Shown here: piece after piece, positions 17,600-63,499 of the stretch
Layout: the number at the start of each line of letters is the position of its first letter
How positions within the stretch are numbered: the first letter of the stretch is position 1
Origin: Acidobacteriota bacterium
Lineage (GTDB): Bacteria; Acidobacteriota; Terriglobia; Terriglobales; SCQP01
Direction: 5' to 3'
DNA length: 64,000 bases
Assembly: GCA_027451805.1 (NCBI GenBank)
Contig: DAIDIF010000023.1
Span: 268-64,267, forward strand
Program-made: the position numbers and the translations under genes
The notes under the pieces: model-generated
The model's database searches: none
What the model was told of the DNA's origin: nothing
Seen by the model: the letters and a program-made list of their open reading frames with translations, nothing else

Positions 17600-18469
17600 A
17601 TGGGGACCTGGTTCAGGCGGCTGCGGCAGACGCTGGAGATGATCAAGTTCGAGCACTCGGTGTTCGCGCTGCCGTTCGCGCTGCTGGGGGCGCTGTTGGC
17701 GGCCGATGGCTGGCCGCGCTGGGCAACGCTGGGGTGGATCGTGGTGGCGATGGTGGGTGCGCGCAGCGCGGCCATGACCTTCAACCGCATCGCCGACCGC
17801 AAGCTGGACGCGCTCAACCCGCGCACGCGCGGGCGGGCGCTGGCGGCGGGCACGCTGCCGCTGGGGTTTGCCTGGGGCTTTCTGGCGGCGAGTGCGGCGG
17901 GGTTCGAGCTGGCGGCCTGGCGGCTGAACCCGCTGTGCCTCGAGTTGTCGCCGCTGGCGCTGGGATGGGTGCTGCTGTATTCCTACACCAAGCGCTTCAC
18001 CTGGCTGTCGCACTGGGTGCTGGGGGCGGGGCTGGGGATCGCGCCGGCGGCCGCCTGGATCGCGGTGCGGGGAACGCTGGCGCCGCGCATTCTGCTGCTG
18101 AGCGGAGCGGTGACGCTGTGGGTGGCGGGCTTCGACCTGCTCTACGCCTGCCAGGACATTGCGTTCGACCGCAGCCGGCCGGAACTGCACTCGCTGCCCA
18201 AGCGCATCGGCGTCGCGCCGACGCTGCGGCTGGCGCAGCTCTGCCACGCACTCATGCTGGGGCTGCTGGCGAGCCTGCTGCTGGCCAGCGGGCTGGGCGC
18301 GCTGGCGTGGATCGGGCTGGCGGCGGTGGCGGGGCTGCTGGTCTATGAGCACGCGCTGCTGTCCCCGACCGACCTGTCGCGCATGAACGCGGCGTTCTTC
18401 ACGGTGAACGGCTACATCGGGGTGGTGCTGCTGGTGTTCTGGGGCGCGGCAATTCTGGTGAGCAACTGA
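17600..18469 (+). CDS. UbiA-family aromatic prenyltransferase (4-hydroxybenzoate polyprenyltransferase-like)
   Basis: Multi-TM protein with FEHSVFALPFAL and the Asp-rich NRIADRKLDALNPRT motif characteristic of UbiA enzymes. Confidence 0.8.
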   Translation: MGTWFRRLRQTLEMIKFEHSVFALPFALLGALLAADGWPRWATLGWIVVAMVGARSAAMTFNRIADRKLDALNPRTRGRALAAGTLPLGFAWGFLAASAAGFELAAWRLNPLCLELSPLALGWVLLYSYTKRFTWLSHWVLGAGLGIAPAAAWIAVRGTLAPRILLLSGAVTLWVAGFDLLYACQDIAFDRSRPELHSLPKRIGVAPTLRLAQLCHALMLGLLASLLLASGLGALAWIGLAAVAGLLVYEHALLSPTDLSRMNAAFFTVNGYIGVVLLVFWGAAILVSN

Positions 18470-18900
18470 TGCGGGCGGCGCTGCTGTTGACGCTGGCGCT
18501 GGGCTGGGGCGCGGCGGCGCAATTCGCGCCGCTCCCGGGACAAAGGCCGGGACTGAGCTACACCCGTGAAACCCCGCCCAACCGGGCGCGGCTGGCGGTG
18601 CCGCGGATTCAAGGCCGGGCGCTGGACCACATCGGCATGGCGGTGCCGGAGGTGGTGCTGGGCTTGTACTCCGATCCCGCGCCGCACCAGCTGCTGGCGC
18701 GCGCCATGACCGGGCCCAACGGGCACTTCGACTTCGGCAAGAAGATCCCGCCCGGCAATTACCGGCTGATCGCGATGTATCCGGGCACCTGCACCGCCAA
18801 CATTCCACTGCAGGTGAATCCGCGGGCGAAGCACAAGAAACTGCAGTTGCGGATGGAGTATCCCGGGTTGGGCGTGTGCAGCTACGCGCTGCTGCGCTAG
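18469..18900 (+). CDS. Secreted hypothetical protein with carboxypeptidase-regulatory-like beta-sandwich
   Basis: Signal peptide MRAALLLTLALGWGAAAQ and a ..TGPNGHFDFGKKIPPGNYRLIA.. motif. Its ATG overlaps the ubiA-like stop (TGATG). Confidence 0.55.
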   Translation: MRAALLLTLALGWGAAAQFAPLPGQRPGLSYTRETPPNRARLAVPRIQGRALDHIGMAVPEVVLGLYSDPAPHQLLARAMTGPNGHFDFGKKIPPGNYRLIAMYPGTCTANIPLQVNPRAKHKKLQLRMEYPGLGVCSYALLR

Positions 18901-18948
18901 CTCCGCAGGGGCGCGCTTGGGCGCCCGCACTCGAAGTTGCACCGCGCC

Positions 18949-19773
18949 TCAATACCGCGCGTACTTGGGATTGAGCGCCGGATGCGGATGGGCATGGACG
19001 TAGGCCGCGAGATCGTAGGCTTGCTGTGGGCTGAGGCTGCCGGCGCCACCCAGCGGCATGAAGCGATGCACAAAGGCCGCCATGGTGCGCACTTGATTCA
19101 TCCCGGCGCCCTGGTTATAGGCCTGCGCGCCCCACAGGGGCGGAATGGAGGGCGGATCCCCGGCGCCGCCGCTGCCGTGGCAGGCGGCGCAGCGCAGCCG
19201 GTACAGCGCCGAACCGGCGAGCGCGCTGGGCCGCCGGGCGGGTGGCGGCAAGGGCGGGAACCCGCGCCCGATCACGCGATCCCCCGCCGGCACCCCGCGC
19301 GAGAGCCAGGCCACGTACGCCAATAGCGCCGTCATGCGCCGCCCCAAGGGCGGCAGCGGCGTGCCGTTTTCGCTGCGCACGAAGCACTCGTCAATGCGCT
19401 CCGCGAGCGGGATGACCCGGCCGGCGCGCCGGTTCCAGGCGGGAAACTCGCCGCTCAGTCCGGCGAAGGGCGCCGCATCCTGCTGCTGACCGTCGCGCAA
19501 ATGACAGTCGGCACAGCTCAAGGCGTTGCCGACGTAGGCGCCGGCGAGCTGCGGCGTCGCGTGGACCAACTCCTGGCCCAACCGGATGCTGGCCCCCAGC
19601 CGTCCGTCCGGCAGCGGGGCGACGGCCGGGGCCGGCACCGTGGCCGCCACGAACCCCCGCGCGTGCGCCCGGGACGCCACCAGATAGTTGCCCAGAGCGA
19701 GAAGCGCCAGCAGGCAGGTGGTGATCGCCGGCAACCATTCCGACTGGAAGCGGCGCCGCGGTCCGGCAGTCAC
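18949..19773 (-). CDS. Dihaem c-type cytochrome, TsdA/SoxA-like (putative His/Cys-ligated first haem)
   Basis: Two CxxCH motifs (CADCH, CAACH). A conserved-looking Cys lies 39 residues after the first haem His, in ERIDECFVRSENG (compare TsdA ..RINGCFERSMNG.., from memory). An ..RFMP.. Met follows haem 2. I chose the GTG start at 19771-19773 because it overlaps the upstream stop as GTGA. The track ATG at 19860 would overlap the upstream gene by 91 nt. Confidence 0.65.
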   Translation of the reverse strand: MTAGPRRRFQSEWLPAITTCLLALLALGNYLVASRAHARGFVAATVPAPAVAPLPDGRLGASIRLGQELVHATPQLAGAYVGNALSCADCHLRDGQQQDAAPFAGLSGEFPAWNRRAGRVIPLAERIDECFVRSENGTPLPPLGRRMTALLAYVAWLSRGVPAGDRVIGRGFPPLPPPARRPSALAGSALYRLRCAACHGSGGAGDPPSIPPLWGAQAYNQGAGMNQVRTMAAFVHRFMPLGGAGSLSPQQAYDLAAYVHAHPHPALNPKYARY

Positions 19774-20747
19774 GGTGCAACCGCCTTCGCGACCGGAGGT
19801 CCGAACCCAAACGCCGTATAGATCCGCCGGGCGGCAGGGGACGCCAGGAAGTTGAGCCATGCCGCCGCCGCGCGCGGGTGCGGCGCGTGCGCCATCAGGC
19901 CCGCCACATAGATCGCCGTCACGTTTTGCCGCGGGGGGATGCGAATACCGGCGATGGGGTGGCCGAGGCGCTCCTGGAACCGCACCTCGGAAGCCCAGGT
20001 CACGCCGGCATCGCTCTCGCCCAGCAGGATGCGCAGCGGCGTTTGCCGATGGTGGATATGGGTCAGGGCGGTCGTGCCGGCCCGCAGCTTGGTCACCATC
20101 ACCTGCGTCACCAGGCTGGGCCCGCCGGCCCGGCGCAGCGCGGACGCAATTTGCCGCTCCACGCCTTCCCAGGCCGGATTCGGCATGGATACGCGCACGT
20201 CCGGCCGGCCGAGATCGCTCAGCCCCCGCAGGCGCAGCGGGTTGCCCTGCCGCACCATGATTTCCAAGTCATTACTGGCGTAGGCCACGATGCGGCGGAT
20301 CTGCCCCTGGCGGCGCAAGGCGTGCACCTTGCGCGCGCCCGCCTCGTAGACGTCCGGCGCGGCCTGAATCGTCAGGTTCCCGAGCGTAAGCGTGTTGTCC
20401 TGCTGCATCTGCCGCAGCAAGATGCCCGGCGGCAGCGTCTCGTAGAAGATGCGGCCACGCAGCCGGGGATGCAGCCGCACGAACGCACGGATGAGCCGGG
20501 GCATCACCATGAACTGGTTGCCGCCGACAAACAGGGTGAGCCCCGGATCGAGGGGATTGCCGTGCAGATCCGGCACATTGTCCACGGTCGCGACGCGGAA
20601 GACGTACCCTTGCCGGGCCGGGTCGTTGCCCCGGCTCCAGGGCGGAAACAGGCCCGCCCGCGGCCGCGGCCCCGCCGCCGCAACCGTCAACGCCAGCGCC
20701 AACCCTCCGCCCAACGCCTGCAGGCCCGCCCGTAGCGCCATGGTCAT
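19770..20747 (-). CDS. Periplasmic solute-binding protein (ModA/oxyanion-binding PBP2-like), no cognate permease or ATPase nearby
   Basis: Signal peptide and PBP-like segments (LTLFVGGNQFMVMPRLIRAF..IFYETLPPGILLRQM..VAYASNDLEIMVRQGNP). Overlaps both neighbours by 4 nt. Confidence 0.6.
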   Translation of the reverse strand: MTMALRAGLQALGGGLALALTVAAAGPRPRAGLFPPWSRGNDPARQGYVFRVATVDNVPDLHGNPLDPGLTLFVGGNQFMVMPRLIRAFVRLHPRLRGRIFYETLPPGILLRQMQQDNTLTLGNLTIQAAPDVYEAGARKVHALRRQGQIRRIVAYASNDLEIMVRQGNPLRLRGLSDLGRPDVRVSMPNPAWEGVERQIASALRRAGGPSLVTQVMVTKLRAGTTALTHIHHRQTPLRILLGESDAGVTWASEVRFQERLGHPIAGIRIPPRQNVTAIYVAGLMAHAPHPRAAAAWLNFLASPAARRIYTAFGFGPPVAKAVAP

Positions 20748-21436
20748 GCCACCGTGATGTAGCTGAAATGGCCGTCGGTCTGCAGCACCGCCACCGCCAT
20801 CACCATGGCCGCCACGACCAAGGTGCCGGGCAGCAAATGGCCGAGCAGCGCCTGCACCAGGTGCTCCGGCGTGCCCTGCAACCGGAACCGGGCGATCATC
20901 GCGCGCGACTGCTCCTCCAGCGCGGTATGGCAGGCCAGGAAATTCACGCCCCGGGCCTTCAGCCCGGTGATGCTCTTGTCTTGATAGATGGATCGCTCAC
21001 TATCCGGATTGCGGTCCCCGGCCGCCGCATCGCTGGCCAGGAACAGATTGCGCCGCGCCCAGGTGCCGGTCTTCGGATCCTTCAGGCCGATGAACTCCCC
21101 CAACGGATAGCCGGCCCAGGCCGCGTCGTCCAGGTTGAGCAGGTTCGAGGGCCCATGCAACGCCGCCACCACATGGAACTCGCGCGGCGCCAGGCCCAAG
21201 CCGAACTGAAACCCATTGAGCGAGTTCTTGATGTTGTTGAGGAAGATGCCGTTGTTGACGGCGATGATGTCGTAGACCTGGCGGTAGCGGGCCGGGCGCG
21301 CCAGCAAACGGCGGAAATCCCGCTCCCGCCAATCGGCGTGGGTATCCACCAGTTGCCCCGCGGCCAGCGTCCCCGCCGCCAGCGCTGCGGCGCCAGCCAG
21401 GCTACGAACGAGAAACTGCTTGCGATCCAGGTTCAT
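20744..21436 (-). CDS. Tat-signal periplasmic protein, possibly DsrE/DsrF-like fold
   Basis: N-terminus MNLDRKQFLVRSLAGAAALAAG is a Tat-like RK variant. The pattern YRQVYDI..HVVAALHGPS..GVNFLACHTAL resembles COG1416/DsrE-like proteins. The assignment is tentative. Confidence 0.4.
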   Translation of the reverse strand: MNLDRKQFLVRSLAGAAALAAGTLAAGQLVDTHADWRERDFRRLLARPARYRQVYDIIAVNNGIFLNNIKNSLNGFQFGLGLAPREFHVVAALHGPSNLLNLDDAAWAGYPLGEFIGLKDPKTGTWARRNLFLASDAAAGDRNPDSERSIYQDKSITGLKARGVNFLACHTALEEQSRAMIARFRLQGTPEHLVQALLGHLLPGTLVVAAMVMAVAVLQTDGHFSYITVA

Positions 21437-21525
21437 TCTCAGGCTCCTGTCCTACCTGAGAACCAGCCTAGGGAGCCGCCGCCGCGGCTGTCCAATCAGA
21501 ATCCACTATGGCGGATGAGCGCGCC

Positions 21526-22440
21526 TCATGCCCCCGCTTCGGCGCCGTGCCGGCGCGCGCGCAGCGTCCGGCGCAGAAACGTCAGGAACTGCCCGGCGAG
21601 CCCGGACGGCGCCGGCCCCTGCGGGTACAGCGTATAGAGTTGCCGCCGCAGCTCCAGGCCGCGCACCTCCACCGCCAGCAACGTGCCCAGCCGGAGTTCT
21701 TTCTCCGCCGCCCAGCGCGAGACCACCGCCAGCCCGATGCCCAACTCCACCGCGGTCTTCACGGCTTCCGTGCTGCCCAGCTCCATGGCCACTTGCGGCC
21801 TGCGCCCCGGCGCGGCGGCGCGCAGCGCGGCTTCCAGCGTTTCGCGCGTACCGGAGCCTGGCTCCCGCATCACCAGCGGCAAGCTCAACAGGTCCGCCAC
21901 CGAAAACGGCTGCCGCAGCGCGGCAAAACGCCGGCCGCGCACCACCACCAGCGCGTCGTGCATCAGCGGTTGCACCTTCAGCCCGGGCAGCGCACAGGGC
22001 CCCTCGATGAAGCCCAGCGGCGCCGACTGCTCGCGCACCCACTGCGCCACCTGCCGGGTGTTGCCGCTTTCCAGCACCAGGCGCACCTTCGGCCGCTCGC
22101 TCTGGAACTCAGCCAGCACCGCCGGCAAGAGATAGCTGGCCACGGTCGAGCTGGCCGCCAGGCGCAATTCCCCGGTCGCCAGCGGCGGCGCCATCAGCTC
22201 GGCCTCCACTTCCTCGTAGAGCTGCAGGATCCGCCGCGCCTGCGTATAGAGGCGCTGGCCCGCCGCCGTGAGGCGCGCGCCGCGCGGCGTGCGATCCAGC
22301 AAACGCTGTCCGTACTCCTCCTCCAGCGCCCGGATCTGCAAACTGACCGCCGGCTGGGTGAGGCCCAACTCCGCGGCCGCGCGGGAAAAGCTCCCTTCGC
22401 GCGCCACGATGTAAAACGCGCGCAGCCGGTAGTCGCCCAT
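21526..22440 (-). CDS. LysR family transcriptional regulator
   Basis: N-terminal HTH LRAFYIVAREGSFSRAAAELGLTQPAVSLQIRALEEEYGQRLLDR and a typical LysR substrate-binding domain length. Confidence 0.9.
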   Translation of the reverse strand: MGDYRLRAFYIVAREGSFSRAAAELGLTQPAVSLQIRALEEEYGQRLLDRTPRGARLTAAGQRLYTQARRILQLYEEVEAELMAPPLATGELRLAASSTVASYLLPAVLAEFQSERPKVRLVLESGNTRQVAQWVREQSAPLGFIEGPCALPGLKVQPLMHDALVVVRGRRFAALRQPFSVADLLSLPLVMREPGSGTRETLEAALRAAAPGRRPQVAMELGSTEAVKTAVELGIGLAVVSRWAAEKELRLGTLLAVEVRGLELRRQLYTLYPQGPAPSGLAGQFLTFLRRTLRARRHGAEAGA

Positions 22441-22477
22441 GGCCGGGACGGCCTAGCGCGGGGCCACCCGCCCCGAA

Positions 22478-23302
22478 CTAGTGCGATTGGAACAGATACA
22501 GGGAGAAGAAAAGAAAGACCCAGACAATGTCGACGAAGTGCCAGTAGTACTCGGCGGCCTTCAGCGACATGTGGTACTGCTGGTTGTACTCGCCCTTCTC
22601 CATGCGCCAGTACACCAGCGCCAGCATGAGCAAACCGACGGTGACGTGGGCGCCGTGGAAGCCGGTCATGAGGAAGTAGGCGGAACTGTAGGCGCCGGTG
22701 GTCAGGGTGAAGCCGAGGACGCCATTGAGGAAGCCCCACTCGAAGCCCTGCATGCCGAGGAAGGTGATGCCCATCGCGATGGTGAGCAACATCCAGTTCT
22801 TGGCGGCGGTCTTCTTGCCGTGCAGCAGCGCGTGCACCGCCCAATTCAGGGTGAAGCTGGAGCCAACCAGGATCAGGGTCGCGATCGCCGGCAGCGTGGT
22901 CTCCAGCGTGGGCATGCCGGCGGGCGGCCAGTGCGCGCTGGTGAAGCGGCTGTAGTAGAGGTACTCGAAGTAGGAGACGAAGATCATCCCCTCGGAGGCG
23001 AGGAAGAAGAAAAAGCCGCGGGTCAGGTCCTTGTTGGTCTGGACCTGGTCCATGTGGCGGCGCTCCACGGCGATGGTATTGGCCCAGCCGGAGGCGGCAA
23101 CCAGGGTGTAGAGGACGGCGGCGGCGAGCAGCACGCCGGCCAGCGGCACGCCCAGGTAGACCAGAAACACCAGGAAGACCACGGCGCCCATGCCGCCGGC
23201 GAGCAGGATGGGCCAGAAGCTGGGCGCGGGCGTGTGCGCGCTGGGATCGGCGTGCATGCCGGCGTGTGCGGCGGCGGGCGAAGCGAGGCTGGCGTGTTCC
23301 AT
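22478..23302 (-). CDS. coxC: Haem-copper oxidase subunit III
   Basis: Seven-TM protein ending ..GFHGAHVTVGLLML..YWHFVDIVWVFLFFSLY, the canonical subunit III signature. Confidence 0.9.
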   Translation of the reverse strand: MEHASLASPAAAHAGMHADPSAHTPAPSFWPILLAGGMGAVVFLVFLVYLGVPLAGVLLAAAVLYTLVAASGWANTIAVERRHMDQVQTNKDLTRGFFFFLASEGMIFVSYFEYLYYSRFTSAHWPPAGMPTLETTLPAIATLILVGSSFTLNWAVHALLHGKKTAAKNWMLLTIAMGITFLGMQGFEWGFLNGVLGFTLTTGAYSSAYFLMTGFHGAHVTVGLLMLALVYWRMEKGEYNQQYHMSLKAAEYYWHFVDIVWVFLFFSLYLFQSH

Positions 23303-23486: not shown

Positions 23487-24050
23487 CTATTGTCCTCCGG
23501 CGCCGAAGGCGGGGGGCGCGCCCGGGGCCAGCGGCTCGAGGGTGTACATGACGCTGACGCGCTTGATCCGCGGGTCGAGGCCCTGGTTGAGCTGATAGAT
23601 GACCGGCAGGGTCTTGGTCTCGTGCGGCTTCATGGTCTGATCGCTGAAGCAGAAGCACTGAATCAGGGCCAGGTGGGTGGCGGCGTCGGCGGGATAGATG
23701 TCGTGGATGGCGCGAAAGCGCACGGTGTGGTCGCTGGTGTTGGTAAAGGTGAAGTTGTTCTGGCTGCGCTGGTCGAGGTGCACGGTTTGCAGCATGTCGC
23801 CGGGCTGCAGCGTCACCGCCAAGCCGGGGGCGGTGATGGTGCTGAAGCTGATGTTGATGGCGCGATGCAGGTCCACCGGGCCGGTGGAGGCGGCCAGCTT
23901 CTCGTCCGGCGGCACGTAGAGCCCGTAATGGGCGCAGAAGACGCGGAACAGGGGCACGTTGATGAAGGCGAAGCCCACCATGCCCAGCGCGATGAGCAAC
24001 AGCTTCCAGCCGTGGCGCTTGCGGCGTTCAAACCCTGGAACGATTGCCAT
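23487..24050 (-). CDS. ctaG: Cytochrome c oxidase assembly protein CtaG/Cox11 (CuB insertion)
   Basis: N-terminal TM then VPLFRVFCAHYGL (Cox11 CFCF-type region ..LIQCFCFSDQ..). Confidence 0.85.
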   Translation of the reverse strand: MAIVPGFERRKRHGWKLLLIALGMVGFAFINVPLFRVFCAHYGLYVPPDEKLAASTGPVDLHRAINISFSTITAPGLAVTLQPGDMLQTVHLDQRSQNNFTFTNTSDHTVRFRAIHDIYPADAATHLALIQCFCFSDQTMKPHETKTLPVIYQLNQGLDPRIKRVSVMYTLEPLAPGAPPAFGAGGQ

Positions 24051-24057
24051 GATGCTG

Positions 24058-25653
24058 CTAGTCGACCTCCGGAATCTCGGCGAAGTTGTAGGCGGGCGGC
24101 GGGCTCGAGGTGGCCCACTCCAGATGCAGCTCGATGTCGTTGGCCTGCCAGGGATCGTCCCCCGCCGTCTTGGGCTCCCGCAGCGCCTTGATGATGCTGT
24201 AGGTGAACAGGATGCCGGCGAGGAGCATGAAGATGAAGCCCTCGGAGATGAACTGGTTGAGCGGGCGGAATTCGATGCGGTAGTTGGCGACGCGCCGCGC
24301 CATGCCCTCGATGCCGAGCAGGTGCATGGGCATGAAGACCCAGTTCATGCCGATGAAGAAGAGCCAGAACACCCAGCTGCCGAGCTTTTCGCTGAGCATG
24401 CGGCCCGTAATCTTGGGAAACCAGTAGTAGGTGCCGGCGAACAGCGTCATCACCGAGCCGCCGACCAGCACATAGTGGAAGTGGGCGACGACGAAGTAGG
24501 TGTTGTGCACCAGGATGTCGAAGGGCACGACCGCGAGCATGAGGCCGCTGAGGCCGCCGAGCACGAAGGTGAAGATGAAACCCAGGGCAAACTTCATGGC
24601 GGTGGTGAAGCGGATCACGCCGCCCCACACCGAGGCCAGCCAGGAGTAGATCTTCACGCCAGTCGGCACCGAGATGAACATGCTGGCCATCGAGAAGAAG
24701 ACGCGCGCGCTGGCGGAGATGCCGGCGGTGAACATGTGGTGCGCCCAGACCATGAAGCCGATGACGCCGATCGACCAGATCGCCATCACCATGCCCTTAT
24801 AGCCGAACAGCTTCTTGCGGGCCATGGAGGGGATGATGTGGGAGATCATGCCGAAACCCGGCAGGATCATGATGTAGACCTCGGGATGGCCGAAGAACCA
24901 GAACAGGTGCTGGTAGAGAAGCGGGTCACCGCCGAGCGCGGGGCGATAAAAGCCGGTGTTGAGCCAGCGGTCGCTGAGGAGCATGAAGAGCGCGCCGGAG
25001 AGGACGGGCACGGCGAGCACCAGCATCCAGGCGGTGACCACCCAGCTCCAGACGAACAAAGGCAGCTTCATCCAGTTCATGCCCGGGGCGCGCATGTCAA
25101 TCACGGTGACCAGGAAGTTGATGGCGCCCATGATCGAGCTGATGCCGAGCAGGATGACAGCCAGGATCCAGAGGTCCTCGCCATGGCCGGCGGAGAACTG
25201 GGCGGTGCTCAGCGGCGGGTAGCTCCACCAGCCGTCGGCGGCGGCGCCGCCCACCACGAAGAAGCTGCCGTAGAGCATCATCGCGGCGGGGATGAGCAGC
25301 CAGAAGGCGAAGGCGTTGAGCTTGGGGAACGCCATGTCGCGGGCCCCGATCATCAGCGGCACCAGGTAGTTGCCGAAGCCCGCGAACGCCGTCATCAGGG
25401 TCAGGAAGATCATGATGGTGGCGTGCATCGTCATGAGCTGGTTGTACAGCGCGGGCGAGACGATGTGCCAGTCTGGGTTATAGAGGTTGAGCCGGATCAG
25501 GCCGGCGAGGGAACCGCCCAGCCAGCCGTTGATCAGGGCAAAAACGATGTACATGATACCGATCTTCTTGTGATCGGTGGTGGTGATCCAGTCGAGGACG
25601 CCGTGGTACTGGCGGGGCTGGGTCACCCCGGCGGTGGCTACGTGGGTGCTCAT
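24058..25653 (-). CDS. coxA: Haem-copper oxidase subunit I
   Basis: 531 aa with [15 protein letters not shown] and VAHFHYV signatures. Confidence 0.95.
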
Positions 25654-26459
25654 GCTTTTCCTCGCGCCTTGCGGGCGGCCGTCGGCGCCACGGGTAAAGC
25701 GGCGGGCGGGGCGGCGGGTAGGGAGGCCGACTGCGTACGGTGTTTCGCCAGCCAGGCCTGGAACTGGTCGTTCGGCACCACCTGCACGTCAATCAGCATC
25801 TGCGCGTGGTTGACGCCGCACAATTGCGTGCACTGGCCCTTGTAGTAACCGGGCTTGGCCTTAAACCAAAGGTTGGTGATGCGGCCGGGCAGGGCGTCCA
25901 TCTGAATGCCCAGGCCGGGGACGTAGAAACCGTGGATCACGTCCACGCTGGTGAGATCGAGATCCACCACCGCGTTGGCGGGAACCACCAGGGTGTCGTT
26001 GGAGATATCAATGCCGTACTGCGGGTATTTGTATTCCCAGAAGAACTGGTGGCCAACCACGTCAATGGTGAGCGCGGGATTATTGCCGCCGAATTCCATG
26101 AACGTCAGGGTGGGGTAGGAGTGCAGGGCGACGGTGATGACGACGATCAGGGGAATGATGGTCCACAGGAACTCGAGCGGGTTGTTTTCGTGGAAGGTGG
26201 CGGGCTTGCGGCCGTCGCCCTTGTCGCGGAACTTGATGATGACGTAGGCCAGCAGGATATAAGCGATGAGGATGAAGGGGATGACCCAGACGAAGGCGCG
26301 CAGGCTCGCGGCGGCGGCGCGGATGGCGACGATGCCGCCCGGCTGGCTGAAGGCGTTGCGCACCGGCGCGGCGCTGCCCTTGGCGGCCGCCTGGGCCATG
26401 GCCTGGGCCATGGACGTTCCGGCCTGCTGGGCGTAACTAGACAGCAGCGCCAAACTCAT
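25650..26459 (-). CDS. coxB: Haem-copper oxidase subunit II (CuA), without a fused cytochrome c domain
   Basis: Two TM helices and a cupredoxin domain with DVIHGFYVP and [12 protein letters not shown] CuA ligands. There is no CxxCH motif. Confidence 0.9.
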
Positions 26460-27475
26460 TGCGAACCTCCGTTTGCGGTTCCCTGCCCCGCCGACAGCGC
26501 CTGCACGAGCTGCTGTTCATAGGCGTAGAGGGAGCCGAGTTGGGGGACGGTCAGGGTCCCCTGGCCGGGCATCATATGGCCGGGCAGGCCGTGCAGCACG
26601 ACGTGGGAAAAGCTGGCGAAGTCGCTGGGCGAGGAGAGGATGAGCGGCTGGAGAAAGCTCTGGGCGCGGACCTCGACGTAGGGGTCGGAGTCGACCATCT
26701 CCACCGGGATGCCGCCCTGGCCGAGCAGGCCGTGGCAGGTTTGGCAATGGAGCTGGTAGAGGGCCTTGCCCTGGGCGAGATCGGGCGCCGCCTTACCGGG
26801 CAGCGCGGCGGGCGGGGACGGCGGCGGCACTTGGGCGGCGGCGGCGGCCGCCTCGGAGGCAAAGATCCGCATCGCCACCGCGATCGGAATGCGGGGGCCG
26901 GTGGGCACCGGCTGGAGCGGCGGTAGCGCGGCCGGGGCCTCGGAGGCGGGACTCTCGATCGCTTCCAACTGCGCTGGGGTGTTGTGCTGCAGCGCGCTCT
27001 TGGGGATGAAGTTCTGGCGGATGTAGTGGATCACCGCCATGCGTTCCTCGGGTGTGAGCGCCACGAAGCTGGGCATGGAGGTGCCCGGCGAGCCGTTGGT
27101 CACCGTGTGGTACATGGTGAGCACCGAGGTTCCGAAACGGAAGACGCCGGTGTGGTAGTTGCGCGGCGGCGGGTTGAGGCCAGCGGCGCGCGGGCCGTTG
27201 CCGTAGCCGTCGATGCCGTGGCAGGGGGCGCAGTTGGCCACGAACACCTGCTGGCCCTCGGCCAGCAGCTTGGGCGTGGGCTTGAGCAGCGGGCGCAGGT
27301 CCACCACGGTGGCGGCGCCGGGCGGCGGCGGCTTGTGAAAGTCGAACCGGGCCTGAAAGAGCGCCCGGCCGTATTCCCCACCGAAGGCCGAGTAGATCAG
27401 GAAACCGGCCGCCATCACCACCAGAGCGAAGCCGATCAGCGACTTGAGCGAGGGCTGGGCCGGCGGCTGGCTCAC
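26456..27475 (-). CDS. Membrane-anchored dihaem cytochrome c (likely electron link between ACIII and the oxidase)
   Basis: N-terminal TM helix and two CxxCH motifs (CAPCHG, CQTCHG). Overlaps both neighbours by 4 nt. Confidence 0.8.
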   Translation of the reverse strand: MSQPPAQPSLKSLIGFALVVMAAGFLIYSAFGGEYGRALFQARFDFHKPPPPGAATVVDLRPLLKPTPKLLAEGQQVFVANCAPCHGIDGYGNGPRAAGLNPPPRNYHTGVFRFGTSVLTMYHTVTNGSPGTSMPSFVALTPEERMAVIHYIRQNFIPKSALQHNTPAQLEAIESPASEAPAALPPLQPVPTGPRIPIAVAMRIFASEAAAAAAQVPPPSPPAALPGKAAPDLAQGKALYQLHCQTCHGLLGQGGIPVEMVDSDPYVEVRAQSFLQPLILSSPSDFASFSHVVLHGLPGHMMPGQGTLTVPQLGSLYAYEQQLVQALSAGQGTANGGSQ

Positions 27476-28692
27476 AGGTACCTCCCCGCAACCGAATTCA
27501 GAAACTTGGGATCGCCCACCGGCACCATCGGATGGCGGCTGAGGTAGCGGGTCGCGAGCAGCCCGAAGATGCCGAGGAAACCCAGGAAGACGCCGAGCTC
27601 GACCCAGTTCGGCATGTAGAAGCTGGGATGGATGACGGGCATGATCAGCCAGTAGCAGTCAAACCACTCCGCCACCAGGATCAGGCTCGACATGGCGATG
27701 AGCACTTTCTCGTTGGTGCGCACCTTCTGGTTCATCAGGATGGTGAAGGGCAGCACCCACTTGGCGATCAGCAGGGCGAGGAAGAGGTAGCCCCAGCCGT
27801 GGACGATGCGCTGGTGAAAATAGATGGTCTCCTCGCGGTAGTTGGCGTACCAGATCAGCATGTACTGGGCGAAGCCGATGTAGACCATGAAGATGCTGAA
27901 GGCGTGCACGATGCGCGCCAAGTCCACGTAGTGGTAATCCTTCACCGCGCCGCCGAACATGTTGTGGCGGCGTAGCAGCACGGTGAACAGCAGCACCAGC
28001 GCCAAGCTGGCCTGGAGGAGGCCGGCGAAGCCGTAGACGCCCCACATGGTGGTGTCCCAGTGGGGCTCGAGCGACATTACCCAGTCCACGAAACACCAGG
28101 TGAAGCTATAGCCGAAAAAGATCAGAAACCCGGCGGCGACGCGTCCGCGGATGGTGGGCTTCTTGCCGAAGGTGGGGCGGGGCGCCAGCACCGCGGGGTG
28201 GGTGTCCTGATAGGTGGAGTTGCGGAGGAACCAGTAGCCAAACAGGCACCAGACGCCGAGCGCCAGCAGCGTGCGCGCGCTGTAGAAGGGCATGGCGAAG
28301 TAGGCGCGCTTGCCGGCGGTGATGAAGCCGGAGTAGCCGGCGACGGCCCAGGGATAAATGTGGGGGACGCCGAGCAGCAGCACGATGGCGAGCAGGAAGG
28401 CGGCCGGCAAATAGTTGGCGGCGGCTTCGGGCAGGCGGCGGAAGACCACCGTCCAGGTGGCGCTGGTGATGTACTCCAGCGCGACCAGAAAGACGCCGCC
28501 CAGGCCGAGCACCAGGAAGAACAGGTAGTTGGTCAGGAAACTGTACCAGGCGCGCTGGGGGCTGACCGCGAGCGCGATCAGAAACACCATCACGCCGATG
28601 GCGGTGGACGCCATCAGCCAAGTGCGCACGCGGCGGGGGAAGACCGCGGGGCCCGGTTGGGGAATTTCGACGACTTGCTGGTGTGCGTCCAT
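27472..28692 (-). CDS. actF: Alternative Complex III subunit ActF (polytopic membrane subunit)
   Basis: 406-aa multi-TM protein in the canonical position after actE. Assigned by operon order and NrfD-related membrane character. Confidence 0.75.
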   Translation of the reverse strand: MDAHQQVVEIPQPGPAVFPRRVRTWLMASTAIGVMVFLIALAVSPQRAWYSFLTNYLFFLVLGLGGVFLVALEYITSATWTVVFRRLPEAAANYLPAAFLLAIVLLLGVPHIYPWAVAGYSGFITAGKRAYFAMPFYSARTLLALGVWCLFGYWFLRNSTYQDTHPAVLAPRPTFGKKPTIRGRVAAGFLIFFGYSFTWCFVDWVMSLEPHWDTTMWGVYGFAGLLQASLALVLLFTVLLRRHNMFGGAVKDYHYVDLARIVHAFSIFMVYIGFAQYMLIWYANYREETIYFHQRIVHGWGYLFLALLIAKWVLPFTILMNQKVRTNEKVLIAMSSLILVAEWFDCYWLIMPVIHPSFYMPNWVELGVFLGFLGIFGLLATRYLSRHPMVPVGDPKFLNSVAGRYL

Positions 28693-28694
28693 GG

Positions 28695-29378
28695 TTAGTG
28701 AGGAATGGCCTCCGAGCCGGGGATGGGGCCGTTGGGGCCCTCGGCGGGGGGCAGATCGTGGGAGAAGTCCATCCCCGCGCGTTGCGCGCGCGCCATGTCG
28801 GAGGGCGAGGGGTTGGCGGCAAGTTGCAGCACGCGCACGTAATGGATGATGGCCCAGCGCTGCGCCGAGTCGAGTTCGGTCTGGTAGGGAGGCATGTTGC
28901 CCTGGCCCTGGGTGACGATGGTGAAGATGCGTCCGTCGCTGAACTGGAGCGGGGCGCCGGCGATCAGCGGCGGCGGCTGCGTCATCTTGGGCACGATGTA
29001 GCCCAATCCATTGGCGAGCGGGCCATGGCAGACGATGCAGTAGTTGTCAAACAACTGCCGGCCCTTGGCCAGCACCGCGGGCGTGATCGGCAGCGGATCC
29101 ACGATGCTGTCCACGCCGCTGACGTCGGAGGGCTGGGGAAAGGGAGTGTAGTTGACGGGCACGGTGTGCGCGGGCGGCACGCGCATGGCGGGCAGGCTGG
29201 CATCGACGTGGTCGGTGCCCAGGGGACGCACGCTCTGCTGCACGTACATGTCGGGCTGGTACTCGATCTGGGTCGTGGTCGTGGTGCCGGGGCCGGCGCA
29301 GCCGAACAGCAGCAGGCCCAGCGCGGCGGCGACGATCCAGACGAGACAGCCGGGCAGCATCGGGGTGACTTTAGGCAA
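28695..29378 (-). CDS. actE: Alternative Complex III subunit ActE (monohaem lipoprotein cytochrome c)
   Basis: Lipobox LLLFGCAG and a single CIVCHG haem motif. Confidence 0.8.
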   Translation of the reverse strand: MPKVTPMLPGCLVWIVAAALGLLLFGCAGPGTTTTTQIEYQPDMYVQQSVRPLGTDHVDASLPAMRVPPAHTVPVNYTPFPQPSDVSGVDSIVDPLPITPAVLAKGRQLFDNYCIVCHGPLANGLGYIVPKMTQPPPLIAGAPLQFSDGRIFTIVTQGQGNMPPYQTELDSAQRWAIIHYVRVLQLAANPSPSDMARAQRAGMDFSHDLPPAEGPNGPIPGSEAIPH

Positions 29379-29892
29379 GATCGCGCACCTCCACGGCGCC
29401 GAGCTCCTTCAGCATCGCCTGCACGTTGCCGCTCTCGTAGGGGCGGACCGGCACGTAGAGGCCGAAGTGGTCATTGGTGAGCTCCCGATCGAGCGGGACG
29501 AAGTTGGGCGCCGGCCGCAGCCGGGCGGCGATAAACACGGCGGTGAAGGTGGAGATACCGGCGATGAGAATGCCGCTCTCGAACGTGATGGGCATATAGG
29601 CGGGCACCGAGATGAAGGGCTTGCCGGCGATGTTGAGCGGCCAAGCCCAGGCCATGGTCCAGGCTTCGAAGGTGAACCCGAGCGTGGCGCCGACAAAAAA
29701 CATGGTTTTGGTGACGCGCGGCATCCAACTCATCTTGAGGCCGAGCGCCTTGTCCATGCCGTGGACGGCGTAGGGGGTATAGGCGTCCAGCCCGCGGTAG
29801 CCTTTCTCGCGCACCGCCGCGATCGCCCGCAGCAGGTGCTGGGGATCGAGGAACAGGGCCAGCACGGCCGGCGGCCGGTACTTGTCAGACAT
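29371..29892 (-). CDS. actD: Alternative Complex III subunit ActD (DUF3341)
   Basis: 173 aa, beginning ..[24 protein letters not shown].., with two TM helices. Has 8-nt overlaps with actC and actE. Confidence 0.75.
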
Positions 29893-31306
29893 GGCTCTCC
29901 TCCAGCGGCGCGGCTTCGGCCACCTGATGCTTGAGCACGCTCTTGACCTCCGCGATCGAGATCACCGGGACGAAGCGCGAGAACACCAGGAAAAGGGTGA
30001 AGAACAGGCCCAGCGAACCGACGAAGGTGCCCACGTCATAGATGGTGGGGGCGTAGTAGCGCCAGTTCGAGGGCATATAGTCCTGCGAGAGCGAGCTGAT
30101 GATGATGACGTACCGCTCAAACCACATGCCGATGTTGATGATGATGCTCATGATGAACAGCACCACCAGATTGCGCCGCGCCCGCCGAAACCAGAAGATG
30201 AGCGGTGCGATGCAGTTGCAGAACACCGTCAGCCAACCCGCCCAGGCATAGGGGCCGAAGAAGCGCAGCCAGATGTAGATGTGGGTCTCGAACGGGTTCT
30301 CGCTGTACCAGGCCATGAAGATCTCGACCAGGTAGGCGTAGGAGACCATCATCGAGGTGGCGAGGATGATCTTCGCCATCAGCTCCATGTGGTCAATGGT
30401 GATGTAGTGCTCCAGCGAGAAGGCCTTGCGCATGATCGTGACCACGGTGATCACCATGGCAAAACCGCTGAAGATCGCGCCGGCGACGAAGTAGGGCGGG
30501 AAGATGGTGTCGTGCCAGCCGGGCATGGAGGAGACGGCGAAGTCGCTGGAGACGACGCTGTGCACGGAGAGCACCAGCGGCGTGCAGATGGCGGCGAACA
30601 AGCCGTAGGCGGCCTCGTAATGATGCCAGTCGCGCGCGGTGCCCTTCCAGCGCTGCGCAACCGCCCCGTAGACCTTGCGCGCGAACTTGCCGGGGTGCAT
30701 GTCGCGCACCGTGGCTAGGTCGGGGATCATGCCCAGGTACCAGAACAGCAGCGACGTGGTGGCGTAGGTCGAAACCGCGAACACGTCCCAGATCAGCGGC
30801 GAACGGAAGTTGACCCAGAGGTGGCGGCTATTGGGATAGGGGATGAGCCAGTAGGCGATCAGGGTGCGGCCGATGTGGATCAGCGGGAAAATGCCGGCGC
30901 AGATCACGGCGAAGATGGTCATCGCCTCGGCGGAGCGATTGATGGCGGTGCGCCAGCGCTGGCGGAAGAGATAGAGGATGGCGGAGATGAGGGTGCCGGC
31001 GTGGGCGATACCGACCCAGAACACGAAGTCGGTGATATAGGTGCCCCACATCACCGGCCGTTCCAACCCGAGAATGCCGAGGCCGACGTGGAGCTGGACC
31101 CAGATGACATAGACCCCGATGTTGAGCATCCCCAGCGCCACCAGCAGTCCGCCCCACCACCAGGCGTTGGGGCGGCGGAAGATGGCGGCGGTGAGCTCGC
31201 GGTTGACCTGGGTGAGGTTGATATCGGCGCGGTAGATGGGCGGCTCCTCCGCCACGACGGGGCCCGGGCCGAGCTGCGCCGGATGCAGGTTCACGTCGTC
31301 GCTCAT
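29885..31306 (-). CDS. actC: Alternative Complex III subunit ActC (NrfD/PsrC-like quinol-interacting membrane subunit)
   Basis: 473-aa polytopic NrfD-like protein immediately after actB. Confidence 0.8.
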
Positions 31307-34300
31307 GCCTTTGCCTCCGGGTCGCCGGCGCCGAGGTTGCGCACCTTGGTGAGGTAGACGATGCTGGGCTGGAAATTCAGCTCCTCCAACACCTTGTAGC
31401 CGCGCGCGGAGCGCTGCCGCATCATCACCGAATTCTTGTCATCCATATTGCCGAAGTAGATCGCCTGCGCCGGGCAGGTCTGCTGGCAGGCGGTGCGGAT
31501 GTCGCCGTCGCGCACCGGCAGGCCGCGCTCCTTGGCGCGATAGTGGGCGGCATGGATGCGCTGCACGCAGAAGGTGCACTTTTCCATGATGCCGCGCGAG
31601 CGGACGGTCACCAGCGGGTTGAGCGCCAACTCCAGCGGCGCCGCACGGACGGTGCTGTAGTTGTAGAAGTTGAAGCGGCGGACCTTGTAGATGCAGTTGT
31701 TGGAGCAGAAGCGGGTGCCGACACAGCGGTTGTAGACCTGCACGTTGAGGCCCTCGGCGTCGGTGACGGTGGCGATCACCGGGCAGACGCTCTCGCAGCC
31801 GGCGTTGGCGCACTGCTGGCAGAGCATGGGCAACTGGGTGACGTCGGGGTTGTCCTCGGGTCCGCTGAAGTAGCGGTCGATGCGGATCCAGGCCATTTCG
31901 CGGCCGCGCCAGACCTGATCCTTGCCTACCACCGGAACGTTGTTCTCGGCGTAGCAGGCTACTGCGCAGGCGTTGCAGCCGATGCAGGCGTTGAGATCGA
32001 TGGTCATGCCCCAGTGGTAGGTGGGGTAGGTGTGCTCGCTGGGGCCGCCGTTGTCCCACAAGCTGGCGGGCGGCTCCTGCGGCGGGTTTCCGGCGCTGGG
32101 GTTGGCCTGGATCTGGACCAGCGTGGTGTCGCGCACGATGGTCGCGGCGCGGCCCTGGCTCTGCTCGGGGGTGATGGTATCGCTGTTGAAGCTGGCGTAA
32201 TTGTTGCCCTGGGGCGAAGCGATAAGATAGCGCCCGCCCACCTTGCGTAGCGTCACCTTGCTGCCGGAGGGAACGATGCCCTGGCCCCCGGGGGCGAGTT
32301 GGGCGAGGCGGTAGGCGTTGGCGCCGACATCGGTGCCCACCTCGCCGACGGAGGCGCGGCCGTAGCCGACGTAAATGGCGGCTACGCCGGGGTGGACGCC
32401 GATCTGGACGTAGACCGGCGCGCGCAGGGTGGCGTTGCCCACCGTGGCTTCGGCCACGGCGTAGGTTTCGTCGCTATCGGGCTCCAGGCCGAGTTGCTTG
32501 GCGGTGCTGGGGGCGATGGTGAAGAAATTGTCCCAGCAACTCTTCCACACCGGGTCGGGGATTTCCAGCAGAAACGCATTGTTGCCCCACCAGCCGTCGC
32601 CCAGCATGGGGGGCACGGCGAGCGAGAGCTCGAGTTCGCCCGCAGCGGCGGGCGCGGACGCGGCGGACGGCAAGGCGGCCAGCGCAGCCGTCTTGAAGGC
32701 GCGCGCGGCGCCGGGCTGCCGCCGCTTGGGGTTGGGATCGAACACGCCCGCCTGGAGCGCGCCGGTCCAGAAGTCGTCGAAACTGGCGGCCGGGTTGTTC
32801 TTGGGGTAGATCTGCGTCTGCCAATGCTCCCGCAGATAGCCGTAGAAGGTGTAGGCGACCGCCGGCGGCTGCGGCGGGGTCGGGGGCGCGGCGGCCGCCG
32901 CTGCGGCCGCGGCGCCGGCCGCCGGAGCGGCCGATAACGCCGGCGTGGCCGCGGCCCCCGGCGCCGGCGGCAACACCGGCGGAGCCGGGGGCGGAGGCGC
33001 GGTGAATTTCGCCTTACCCGCGGGGGTGAGGTAGGCAAGCTGGATCAGGGCGTCCTCGAAACTGCGGCCGCCAAAGAGCGGCTCGATGGTGGGCTGCACC
33101 AGGCTGTACAGGCCGGCCTGCGGCTCGGCGTCGCCCCAGCTCTCCATCCCGTGCAGCGCCGGCAGCGCGAGGTTGCCGAGCTGCGCGGTTTCATCCAGCC
33201 GCTCCGCCAGCACCACCACGTGGGGAACCTTGGCCAGCGCGGGCAGGAAGCCGGCCGCCTCGGGCAGGCTGTAGGCCGGGTTGGTGCCGTAGACGAACAG
33301 CGTCTCCACCTTGCCCGCTTGCATGTCCTGAATCAGTTGCAGCATGGCAGCGTTGCTGCCCTGCGCCTGCAGGCTGGGACTGCCGGTACCGTCAATCGTC
33401 GCGCCTTCATTCTCCAGCGCCGAGTTCAGGAAGGCGACGGCGAGCTCGAGCATGACCTGGTCCTCGGTGGCGCCGGCCATGCCGCCACCGCAGACAATGC
33501 TCTTGCCGCGCTGCTGCCACAACTCGCCCGCGAGCCGGCCGAGGGCGCCGGCGGGCAATCCCGTCTGATGCTCGACCGCGGCCGGCTCGAAGGGCGCGAG
33601 CGCCTTGGCCACGGTGGCATCGCCGGCGAACCTCGACACCTTGTTCACCAGCACGAGCTGGTGGGCCAACGCCAGCGCCGCCGGCAGCAACTGCGACGGC
33701 GGCAGCAAATAGCGGGTGTCGGCGCTGAGGCCGACCAGACTCATCGCCGGCTCGAACGCCACCACCCGCGACATGGTGTTGCCGCGCAGTTTGCGCTGGT
33801 GGCCGAAGCCCCAGGAGTACTCCTGGCGCGAAATGCCGGAGCCGATGGGGTCGGCGCCGAAGGTCACGATCATCTCGGCGCGGTCGAAGAAGTAGCGCGG
33901 CGTCGCGCCGGGCCGCGCAGGCGCGCCGTAGGCGGCGGCCTGGCCGGCGACGACCGCATCCGGATTGATCGAGTCGTAGACGACGTGGCGCAGCGGGTAG
34001 ACGGAGAGGAAATCGGCCAGGAGCGCGGTGCGCGCGGGTCCGTGGATGGTGCCGGTGAGCAGCACGCCACGGCTGCCGGCGGCGCCCAGCCAGGCGCCGA
34101 CCTGCTTGTCGGCCGCGTCCCAGGTGATGGGGTTGAGCGCGCGCAGGATGGGATGCTGATTGTTGCGGAAGGGCGTACCCGTCTTCCAAACGTTGGTCGG
34201 AAAGTGCAGTCTGTACTTGGGCTGGGGCGCGTTGCCCACCAGCCCGGCCAAGCTGTGCACGCGATCGAGCGCCACCGGCTGGCGCAGGCGGTCGGGATCG

Positions 34301-34728
34301 TAGAGGTTCAGCAGCGCCGCCTGGCCGATGGGGCAGGCGGTGCCGTGATTCAGGGGATGCAGCGGATTGCCCTCGACCTTGGTCGGCCGGCCCTCGTGCG
34401 TGGTGAGTACGATGCCGCATCCGGCGGCGCACTCGCGGCAGGTGGAGGCGTAGTAGTTCGCGATGCCAGGCGTGATGTCGGGCGGCTGCTGGGCGTAGGG
34501 GATGATCTGCTGGACCGGCTTGCGCGAGCAGGCGGTGGCGGCCACCGCGAGCGCCGCGGTCGACCACTTCATGAAGTCACGGCGCCCGAAGCGGAGGCCC
34601 TCTTTGCCACTCTCCACCGCGTCGAAATGTTCCTGCGGCTTGGACTTGAACTCCTCCTGCCGCAGTTTCTCGACCGCCGGCGATCCCTGCAGTTCCGGCA
34701 GCGTCGTCCAGTAGCGTGGTTTGCTCAT
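31303..34728 (-). CDS. actB: Alternative Complex III subunit ActB (molybdopterin-oxidoreductase-like B1 fused to 4Fe-4S ferredoxin-like B2), 1141 aa
   Basis: Tat signal [20 protein letters not shown], a molybdopterin-like N-terminal part and C-terminal Cys clusters ([43 protein letters not shown]). Confidence 0.9.
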
Positions 34729-34738
34729 AATCTGAAGC

Positions 34739-60849: not shown

Positions 60850-60991
60850 GACGCTGTACGTTGATCTTGCCTATTTTAGCAGCAGCGGGCGATCGAGCCG
60901 GGAAGGGAGGGGGGCCAGTTGCGCGGCGGCGCGGGGTGCGGTATCGTTACTTGCGCGCAGGTTCCACCCTCGGCGCATCCCCTTGGAGGCA

Positions 60992-63499
<2,508 letters not shown>

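Follow-up and report, generated by a model that had tools for sequence, protein, structure and literature searches.

Thiosulfate holds a central position among the intermediates of the sulfur cycle. Acidobacteriota rank with the most abundant bacteria in soil, yet they are rarely regarded as sulfur oxidisers. A tetrathionate-forming thiosulfate dehydrogenase (TSD) of about 25 kDa was reportedly described from Acidithiobacillus ferrooxidans by Kikumoto et al. in 2013. The enzyme of about 25 kDa is AFE_0042, a 'Tat pathway signal protein' whose gene adjoins those of a solute-binding protein (AFE_0043) and of DoxDA; the cluster rhd-doxDA-sbp-tsd (AFE_0045 to AFE_0042), of which a second copy lies around AFE_0050, is induced by sulfur (PMC6335251; PMC2754497). 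Next to AFE_0050, AFE_0049 is given as a periplasmic solute-binding protein (PMC2754497). The product of TSD is tetrathionate, but neither ubiquinone nor horse cytochrome c takes up its electrons, and which acceptor does so is unknown (PMC6335251, PMC10859504). The dihaem cytochrome TsdA interconverts thiosulfate and tetrathionate, and both directions are possible (PMC5146829). TsdA homologues are absent from Acidithiobacillus, and TSD and TsdA are described as separate kinds of enzyme in different organisms (PMC6335251). Here we describe a locus in which the two families appear to meet. In a 64-kb stretch of DNA from a soil bacterium of the Acidobacteriota (contig DAIDIF010000023.1; the whole stretch is called the window below), the genes for a twin-arginine translocation (Tat) signal protein distantly related to TSD (here called TatP), for an orphan periplasmic solute-binding protein and for a TsdA follow one another as a translationally coupled trio.

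We propose that these three genes encode a periplasmic thiosulfate/tetrathionate module feeding an oxidase, and we put the probability of this reading at roughly 0.6. The locus had been singled out in a first-pass annotation of the window, which was made from the sequence alone and read it as a LysR-headed trio of a DsrE-like Tat protein, an oxyanion-type binding protein and a TsdA-like cytochrome, coupled by two 4-nt overlaps. Four open reading frames (ORFs), encoding LysR, TatP, the binding protein and the cytochrome, lie head to tail and co-directionally on the minus strand between positions 18949 and 22440, in a window of about 70% GC. Both overlaps are present: the TatP/binding-protein junction (gcATGAcc) shares ATGA at 20747-20744 and the binding-protein/tsdA junction (ccGTGAct) shares GTGA at 19773-19770. 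Given the GTGA overlap, the start of the cytochrome must be GTG 19773 (274 aa). The same start is used by public gene callers on three independent contigs carrying this locus, and it yields a normal-looking signal peptide, MTAGPRRRFQSEWLPAITTCLLALLALGNYLVASRAHA. The start of the longest ORF, ATG 19860 (303 aa), was rejected, since gene callers, GTGA coupling and signal peptide all favour GTG 19773. An identical locus is also found in a public acidobacterial metagenome-assembled genome (MAG), GCA_027313965.1.

Judged by its sequence, the cytochrome is a genuine member of the TsdA family, a known enzyme, and not merely TsdA-like. In a phmmer search of all PDB chains it matched thiosulfate dehydrogenase of Allochromatium vinosum (4wq7, also 4v2k) with an E-value of 9e-55, query residues 42-267 covering chain residues 6-237, which amounts to full-length homology. 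The E-value was 3e-44 for the TsdBA fusion 5lo9 and only 4e-7 for SoxA. Likewise, the Pfam model SoxA-TsdA_cyt-c was passed with 50.2 bits (cutoff 27), while the NCBIfam SoxA equivalog model gave 36 bits, below its cutoff of 110. For a closer comparison the downstream cytochromes of 58 related loci were aligned with the window and A. vinosum sequences. The two CxxCH motifs, CADCH and CAACH in the window, are kept in 59/59 and 57/57 aligned sequences, respectively. A Cys, that of ERIDECF, lies exactly 39 residues past the haem-1 His; both features had been pointed out in the first-pass annotation and were confirmed. The alignment pairs ERIDECFVRSENG of the window with QRIGDCFERSLNG of A. vinosum and places RIDECF opposite RIGDCF. 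The Cys of RIGDCF we take to be the haem-1 ligand Cys96, and because the window Cys is aligned with it, the window Cys is the probable haem-1 ligand. It is invariant in all 59 aligned sequences, and the flanking Arg and Ser are invariant too (58 orthologues). The role of the counterpart in Campylobacter jejuni TsdA, Cys138, has been described (PMC5146829). The haem-2 Met is present in 57/57 sequences (HRFMPLG in the window, KHKMPLG in A. vinosum). The window TsdA should contain a His/Cys-ligated catalytic haem 1 and a His/Met-ligated haem 2, and the predicted reaction is 2 thiosulfate <-> tetrathionate + 2 e-. Family membership, the CxxCH pair, Cys, Arg and Ser, and the Met are shared with the characterised enzymes of A. 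vinosum, C. jejuni and Marichromatium (TsdBA); unlike these, the window tsdA has no adjacent tsdB and is translationally coupled to two upstream genes.

The gene order is conserved. We scanned genomes, one per species, with a 19-sequence TatP alignment, which gave 201 TatP relatives, and kept the best 80 loci; because the scan used this closer alignment, the 80 loci are biased toward Acidobacteriota. Nearly all belong to that phylum; Acidipila rosea DSM 103428, a cultured species, and Granulicella are among them. Classification by tblastn with the window proteins revealed all three genes, co-directional and ordered as in the window, in 57 loci, the TatP/binding-protein pair followed by a contig end in 6, a contig end directly after TatP in 4, the pair without a downstream TsdA in 7 (TsdA being upstream in one) and TatP alone in 6. 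Once the 10 contig-end loci are excluded, the order TatP, binding protein, TsdA is found in 57 of the 70 informative acidobacterial loci (81%), and TatP and the binding protein are adjacent in 64 of them. The synteny in relatives that the first-pass annotation had called for is clearly there, and at this frequency the arrangement is not due to chance. In the acidobacterial loci that lack TsdA the neighbours were unrelated and no DoxDA was seen.

The trio is not confined to one phylum. Among six proteobacterial TSD loci, four show the trio order. Noviherbaspirillum pedocola (locus L093) has a two-component system, TSD, an SBP_bac_11 protein, a TsdB-like dihaem cytochrome c and TsdA; L094 has LysR, TSD, the binding protein and TsdA; in L095 a LysR gene separates TSD and binding protein from TsdA; and in L097 TSD and binding protein are followed by a 670-aa TsdB-TsdA fusion. 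Compared with these copies, the binding protein of the window is 47-49% identical, its TsdA 37-42%, TatP (against TSD) 29-31% and LysR 39-41%. A trio shared between phyla at such identities points to an old module that crosses phyla.

TatP matches the NCBIfam model NF052225, 'thiosulfate dehydrogenase', over its whole mature length (E 7.5e-21; residues 29-226 on profile positions 65-257 of 259). The TatP family comprises 506 mostly acidobacterial representatives (50% identity level, E <= 1e-3), and all 70 representatives that were aligned match the model, the best with 1.4e-32. One member, P0213, scores 285 bits on NF052225 and finds the window TatP by BLASTP at 2e-25 (32% identity); its relative in N. 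pedocola is named 'thiosulfate dehydrogenase' by the NCBI annotation pipeline PGAP. At the level of sequence, TatP is a distant homologue of the NF052225 family and not an equivalog. NF052225 would in turn be the family of A. ferrooxidans TSD, judging from the model name, PGAP naming and the published gene map. The Tat-like leader claimed for TatP holds: the motif is the RK variant DRKQFLV in the window, and among 77 orthologues RR occurs in 55, RK in 18 (window included) and KR in 1. Trp107 is invariant in the 70-sequence alignment, and D104, N130, R162, G163, C169, P203, V208, P209 and Q219 are conserved in at least 90%. Cys169, within GVNFLACHTAL, is the sole Cys of the window protein. In an AlphaFold2 model built from this alignment (mean predicted local distance difference test, pLDDT, 93) it ends strand 165-169, just before helix 170-184. 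Neither Pfam nor the conservation pattern points to a recognisable redox cofactor site. Several longer TatP homologues (P0140, P0193, P0251 and others), considered as domain fusions, look like mis-called or chimeric ORFs and were set aside.

The position of Cys169 recalls DsrE-like proteins, which are cytoplasmic. TatP is modelled with a small alpha/beta fold that weakly resembles those of DsrE, DsrF and TusD, including DsrE3A, and with a Cys at a strand-helix junction. In contrast to them, it is Tat-exported to the periplasm, has large insertions and measures 230 aa as compared to 108-160 aa in three DsrE-like PDB matches. DsrE3A of Metallosphaera cuprina reacts with tetrathionate to form a Cys-S-thiosulfonate and does not react with thiosulfate; the same paper cites SSO1126 (PDB 2QS7) (PMC4175335). 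Structure 2qs7, labelled 'DsrE/DsrF-like' in the PDB, is among the top Foldseek matches of TatP together with 2pd2 and 3pnx ('putative sulfurtransferase DsrE'), with template modelling (TM) scores of 0.48-0.62, normalised to the target. A profile of the TatP family found 1l1s in the PDB at E 0.002 and 2pd2 at 0.19; the top matches of this search, TAL-effector repeats, were disregarded as spurious. Among the 70 family members, Pfam recognised TAT_signal in 11 and DsrE in only 3 (best E 0.048), and many members carry the JGI label 'DsrE/DsrF family'. A DsrE likeness is plausible at the level of the modelled fold; membership in the DsrE family is not established. Of the DsrE-like character assigned to the protein in the first-pass annotation, the fold and profile part has found weak support and the match to Pfam PF02635 has not.

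The binding protein is the most conserved member of the trio, with 57-66% identity across Acidobacteriota. Only the broad Pfam model SBP_bac_11 was passed (E 5.1e-39; 134.8 bits, cutoff 25), and all NCBIfam scores lay far under their cutoffs (CysP 26.4/308, Sbp 24.3/155.5, ModA 17.8/62.5). A 40-sequence profile matched PEB3 (1.5e-8), SubI (2.1e-7), Sbp (1.3e-6) and ModA-like proteins (5e-4) in the PDB. The AlphaFold2 model (pLDDT 85) matched ModA, PEB3, SubI and WtpA by Foldseek at E-values around 1e-13 with target-normalised TM scores of 0.75-0.82, at 12-20% sequence identity to ModA/Sbp/SubI/PEB3-type proteins. Pfam, NCBIfam, PDB and Foldseek therefore agree with the oxyanion class first suggested for it: the protein is a distinct subfamily of oxyanion/phospho-anion binders and not a sugar or amino-acid binder. 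With ModA, Sbp/CysP, SubI and PEB3 it shares the type II periplasmic binding-protein fold and the SBP_bac_11 domain; it differs from them by the missing transporter partner, an N-terminal extension of its own, a Trp-Glu-Gly loop and an HHRQT motif. Concerning the transporter, the first-pass annotation was right that none is nearby: neither the annotated ORFs of the window nor the conserved neighbours in the 80 loci nor L093-L097 include a gene for an ATP-binding cassette (ABC) permease or ATPase.

Invariant motifs of the binding protein include GGNQF, YETLPPGIL, MPNPxWEG, LTHxHHRQT and GVTW..E. The SubI loop PSPLSSGSAKW, a Ser/Gly-rich segment that is presumably the sulfate-contact loop of Sbp, aligns with PNPAWEGVERQ, of which W193, E194 and G195 are invariant. 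The N-terminal extension, residues 36-65, contains invariant residues as well (P36, W37, N41, P43 ... P59, D60, L61, H62, G63). Its pattern PPW..G.N.PA...G..F.V...D..PDLHG.P is kept even in the proteobacterial copies, and its pLDDT in the AlphaFold2 model is below 50; the extension may be a partner-docking segment that folds only against its partner. Like the altered loop, it speaks against a textbook site for sulfate or molybdate. Automated annotation calls the protein a molybdate-binding protein. We considered a ModA for molybdate uptake and rejected it: scores are far under the cutoffs, modBC is absent and the linkage to tsdA is conserved.

A cytochrome c/oxidase chain next to the trio had also been noted before. 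It is real and consists of Alternative Complex III (ACIII) and an aa3-type oxidase. In relatives, the gene that immediately precedes the trio encodes an 865-aa cbb3-type fusion of CcoN, CcoO and a dihaem CcoP-like part in about 20 of the 80 loci and a dihaem cytochrome c alone in 4 others. With aa3 in the window and the cbb3 fusion or the dihaem cytochrome in relatives, the presence of an oxidase or cytochrome c beside the trio is recurrent. This adjacency fits an electron flow from TsdA to oxygen; it is also compatible with a flow from ACIII via cytochrome c and TsdA to tetrathionate.

In the mechanism that we propose, TsdA would interconvert thiosulfate and tetrathionate in the periplasm, and the binding protein may capture the sulfur-oxyanion substrate, as the first-pass annotation had suggested, or the product. 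The Cys of TatP would handle the oxyanion covalently as a Cys-S-thiosulfonate, by analogy with DsrE3A and tetrathionate; this thiosulfonate would either recycle the product tetrathionate or present substrate to TsdA. Electrons would pass from haem 2 of TsdA to soluble or tethered c-type cytochromes and on to the neighbouring oxidase, aa3 here and the fused cbb3 in many relatives. A heterotrophic acidobacterium could in this way use thiosulfate as an additional electron donor for respiration. The pair occurs with TsdA, TsdB-TsdA, TsdBA or DoxDA, which makes an accessory or adaptor role likelier than that of a dehydrogenase in its own right; here the argument is at its weakest.

Among the closest described systems is that of Acidithiobacillus, where likewise the genes for a Tat-signal protein (about 25 kDa) and for a periplasmic binding protein of the sulfate/molybdate type lie beside that for a thiosulfate-oxidising redox enzyme (PMC6335251 Fig. 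6; PMC2754497). There, the partner is the quinone-reducing DoxDA and the order is doxDA-sbp-tsd, whereas in the window the partner is TsdA and the order tsd-sbp-tsdA. The first-pass annotation did not recognise the trio as a described system. This stands for the union with tsdA and falls for the tsd-sbp pair, which has already been drawn beside doxDA in A. ferrooxidans (PMC6335251 Fig. 6; PMC2754497). The TsdA enzyme was known as well, so the union of the pair with tsdA is what appears to be new. No description of tsd-sbp-tsdA as a unit was found in the literature searched, coverage of which was incomplete, so that a prior report elsewhere is possible. In a study of peatland Acidobacteria, tsdA was reported absent from the MAGs (PMC6018796).

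A conserved tsdA operon beside terminal oxidases would offer Acidobacteriota a simple energy gain from thiosulfate. The finding also joins the haem enzyme TsdA and the cofactor-less Acidithiobacillus TSD, which appear as alternatives in the literature. Should proteins of the TSD type and their binding-protein partners be accessory to TsdA or DoxDA, two automatic labels would have to change: TatP is now called 'thiosulfate dehydrogenase', and its partner 'molybdate ABC transporter substrate-binding protein'. The electron hand-over of TSD would then also become directly testable.

Several points weigh against our proposal. The roles given to TatP and the binding protein are ones that we infer. 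TsdA of A. vinosum is sufficient alone, so the pair may lack any mechanistic coupling to TsdA. TatP scores 74.6 bits on NF052225, under the equivalog cutoff of 300, and the link between the window and Acidithiobacillus is drawn from how NCBIfam and PGAP name the family and from published maps of the genes. Neither Pfam (at E <= 0.1, DsrE/DsrF PF02635 included) nor a sequence search of the PDB gave a match for TatP, and its Foldseek matches are weak (E 7e-3 to 0.12). The invariant Trp-Glu-Gly loop of the binding protein argues against a canonical sulfate/thiosulfate site. TatP occurs without the other two genes in 6 of the 80 acidobacterial loci, and the proteobacterial loci L090 and L096 have TSD alone in housekeeping contexts. 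A TatP homologue of 50% identity at L008/L009 (8001-11483) is likewise found without binding protein and TsdA. Finally, TsdAs are bidirectional and the haem-2 neighbour in the window is Phe where the A. vinosum enzyme, an oxidising one, has Lys, so the direction of the reaction is unreadable from sequence.

This last point bears on the best-surviving alternative, which we consider unlikely: the trio could work in the reductive direction, in tetrathionate respiration, with electrons passing from quinol via ACIII and c-type cytochromes to TsdA as in C. jejuni, and with the binding protein and the Cys protein capturing and pre-activating tetrathionate. Among TsdAs the position before the strictly conserved haem-2 Met varies, and the environment of haem 2 tunes the catalytic direction (PMC5146829). 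C. jejuni TsdA, a member of this bifunctional family with Asn at this position, is biased to reduction (PMC5146829). Among the trio orthologues the residue is Asn in 44 of 59, Ala in 5, Thr in 5 and Phe in 3, the latter in the clade of the window, and never Lys as in A. vinosum. Genes for ACIII, a quinol:cytochrome c oxidoreductase, lie upstream in the window, and the reactivity of DsrE3A with tetrathionate but not with thiosulfate (PMC4175335) fits the reductive direction. However, the N254K exchange did not make an oxidiser of C. jejuni TsdA (PMC5146829), which makes the haem-2 neighbour a poor predictor of direction. Moreover, what recurs right beside the trio is an oxidase at the end of the chain, either aa3 or the fused cbb3, and not a quinol oxidoreductase alone, and the hosts are mostly aerobic soil Acidobacteriaceae.

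It is distinctly less probable that TatP itself is the thiosulfate dehydrogenase, as has been claimed for A. ferrooxidans TSD; TsdA would then mainly be the cytochrome dedicated to taking its electrons, and the binding protein a subunit or substrate feeder. The family name in NCBIfam and PGAP says so, and purified AFE_0042 is reported to oxidise thiosulfate to tetrathionate with a physiological acceptor that is unknown (PMC6335251; PMC10859504). Where a partner is present it is always an electron-transfer protein, be it TsdA, TsdB-TsdA or, according to the literature, DoxDA. Against this, TatP has one Cys only and no recognisable redox cofactor site, it is only 29-32% identical to the TSD subfamily, and its score is far under the model cutoff. 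The catalytic residues of TsdA, including the haem-1 Cys, are all invariant, which would be superfluous in a mere electron carrier.

A further version, a long shot in our view, takes the trio as a minimal Sox-like carrier system. SoxAX oxidatively couples thiosulfate to a Cys of SoxY (PMC11582611). In the Sox system, too, a cytochrome with a SoxA/TsdA-type His/Cys haem has for its neighbour a small protein of the periplasm in which one reactive Cys is conserved. By this comparison TsdA, which is homologous to SoxA, would do more than condense two free thiosulfates: it would oxidatively couple thiosulfate to Cys169 of TatP or exchange the thiosulfonate, and the binding protein would dock via its N-terminal extension and deliver the anion. 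The likeness has its bounds: TatP is unrelated to SoxYZ, and no SoxB, SoxX or SoxCD was found among the annotated ORFs of the window. If true, annotated TSDs would be carriers or adaptors plugging into TsdA or DoxDA, the activity reported for the A. ferrooxidans protein would reflect a side reaction of such a carrier of thiosulfonate, and an unrecognised thiosulfate pathway would be widespread in soil Acidobacteriota.

That the pair is not specific for sulfur at all, serving metal or redox homeostasis or another anion or phospho-compound and being linked to tsdA by shared regulation or respiratory co-localisation, is very improbable: the TatP relative beside multicopper oxidase and CopB at L008/L009, the solitary TSD-type proteins in housekeeping contexts, PEB3 (bound to L-phospholactate according to the PDB) as best PDB profile match of the binding protein, the invariant Glu in its putative anion loop and the molybdate-binding label of the pipelines speak for it, but a tsdA synteny of 81% in one phylum that recurs in a second at 29-49% identity is difficult to account for unless the genes are functionally linked, the partner in Acidithiobacillus is another thiosulfate-oxidising enzyme (PMC6335251), and the ModA equivalog score is 17.8 against a cutoff of 62.5 with no modBC genes.

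The features of the locus and of its respiratory neighbourhood are compiled in Table 1.

Table 1. Coordinates, strand and basis of assignment of the trio, its regulator and the upstream respiratory genes in the window
Feature	Position	Strand	Basis
TsdA dihaem cytochrome c, 274 aa from GTG start	18949..19773	-	4wq7 homology, Pfam SoxA-TsdA_cyt-c
Orphan periplasmic solute-binding protein, 325 aa, ModA/Sbp/PEB3 class	19770..20747	-	Pfam SBP_bac_11
TatP, Tat-signal periplasmic protein, 230 aa; TSD-like	20744..21436	-	NCBIfam NF052225
LysR-trio intergenic region, 89 nt; likely promoter/operator	21437..21525	-	direct reading of sequence
LysR-type transcriptional regulator, 304 aa	21526..22440	-	Pfam HTH_1 + LysR_substrate
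coxC	22478-23302	-	Pfam COX3 (public gene calls)
ctaG	23487-24050	-	Pfam CtaG_Cox11
coxA	24058-25653	-	Pfam COX1
coxB	25650-26459	-	Pfam COX2
Dihaem cytochrome c	26456-27475	-	
ACIII gene set, ActA-F-like	27472-35311	-	
406-aa ORF, no Pfam match	27472-28692	-	
Monohaem cytochrome c	28695-29378	-	
ActD	29371-29892	-	E 9e-48
NrfD	29885-31306	-	
Molybdopterin/FeS subunit, 1141 aa	31303-34728	-	
Multihaem c7/c3 cytochrome	34739-35311	-	

The complete-looking ACIII, the dihaem cytochrome c, the aa3 oxidase, LysR and the trio stand together on one strand as an array of 16 kb, with the TsdA trio at its end. The cbb3 fusion of the relatives consists of COX1, FixO and two cytochrome c domains; in Acidipila rosea (L054) it lies at 3202-5799 on the same strand as the trio, and further examples are L025, L033, L036, L037, L053, L073 and L089.

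The regulator in the window is a LysR-type protein by Pfam (HTH_1 1.1e-23, LysR_substrate 1.3e-46), and none of the NCBIfam equivalog models reached its cutoff. It starts 37 nt after the coxC stop, and its end is 89 nt from the start of the TatP gene, whose ATG is preceded at 8 nt by GGAG as the ribosome-binding site. In the window lineage LysR probably controls expression of the trio. LysR is indeed upstream here, as the first-pass annotation had it, but 'LysR-headed' does not hold as a general trait: a LysR gene directly upstream on the same strand was found in only 9 of the 80 acidobacterial loci, though the two proteobacterial loci L094 and L095 have LysR genes with 41% and 39% identity to that of the window. 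Regulators vary between versions of the module. In L093 a two-component system lies upstream (3843-5827), and L095 has two LysR genes (3750-4661 and 6982-7860), one divergent and one between the binding-protein gene and tsdA. In the gap between LysR and the trio, ccATAGTGGATTCTGATtgg shows a loose T-N11-A pattern with imperfect dyad symmetry and might be a LysR box. A consensus scan of 18400-22700 for promoters and terminators gave no match, which says little at 70% GC in an acidobacterium.

The TatP homologue of L008/L009 directly precedes a multicopper oxidase and CopB and lies downstream of cox and Rieske/cytochrome b genes; none of the 80 genome loci repeats this multicopper oxidase/CopB context.

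Elsewhere in the window, a 2687-aa ORF at 1234-9297 (minus strand) combines GH94 supersandwich, catalytic and glucoamylase-like domains and resembles cyclic beta-1,2-glucan synthase (NdvB/ChvB-like). The ORF for SRP54 (Ffh) at 59488-60849 (minus strand) and the longest ORF for an H+-pyrophosphatase at 60476-63499 (plus strand) overlap by about 370 nt on opposite strands. Since the H_PPase domain begins only at residue 249, the true start of the pyrophosphatase is probably further downstream.

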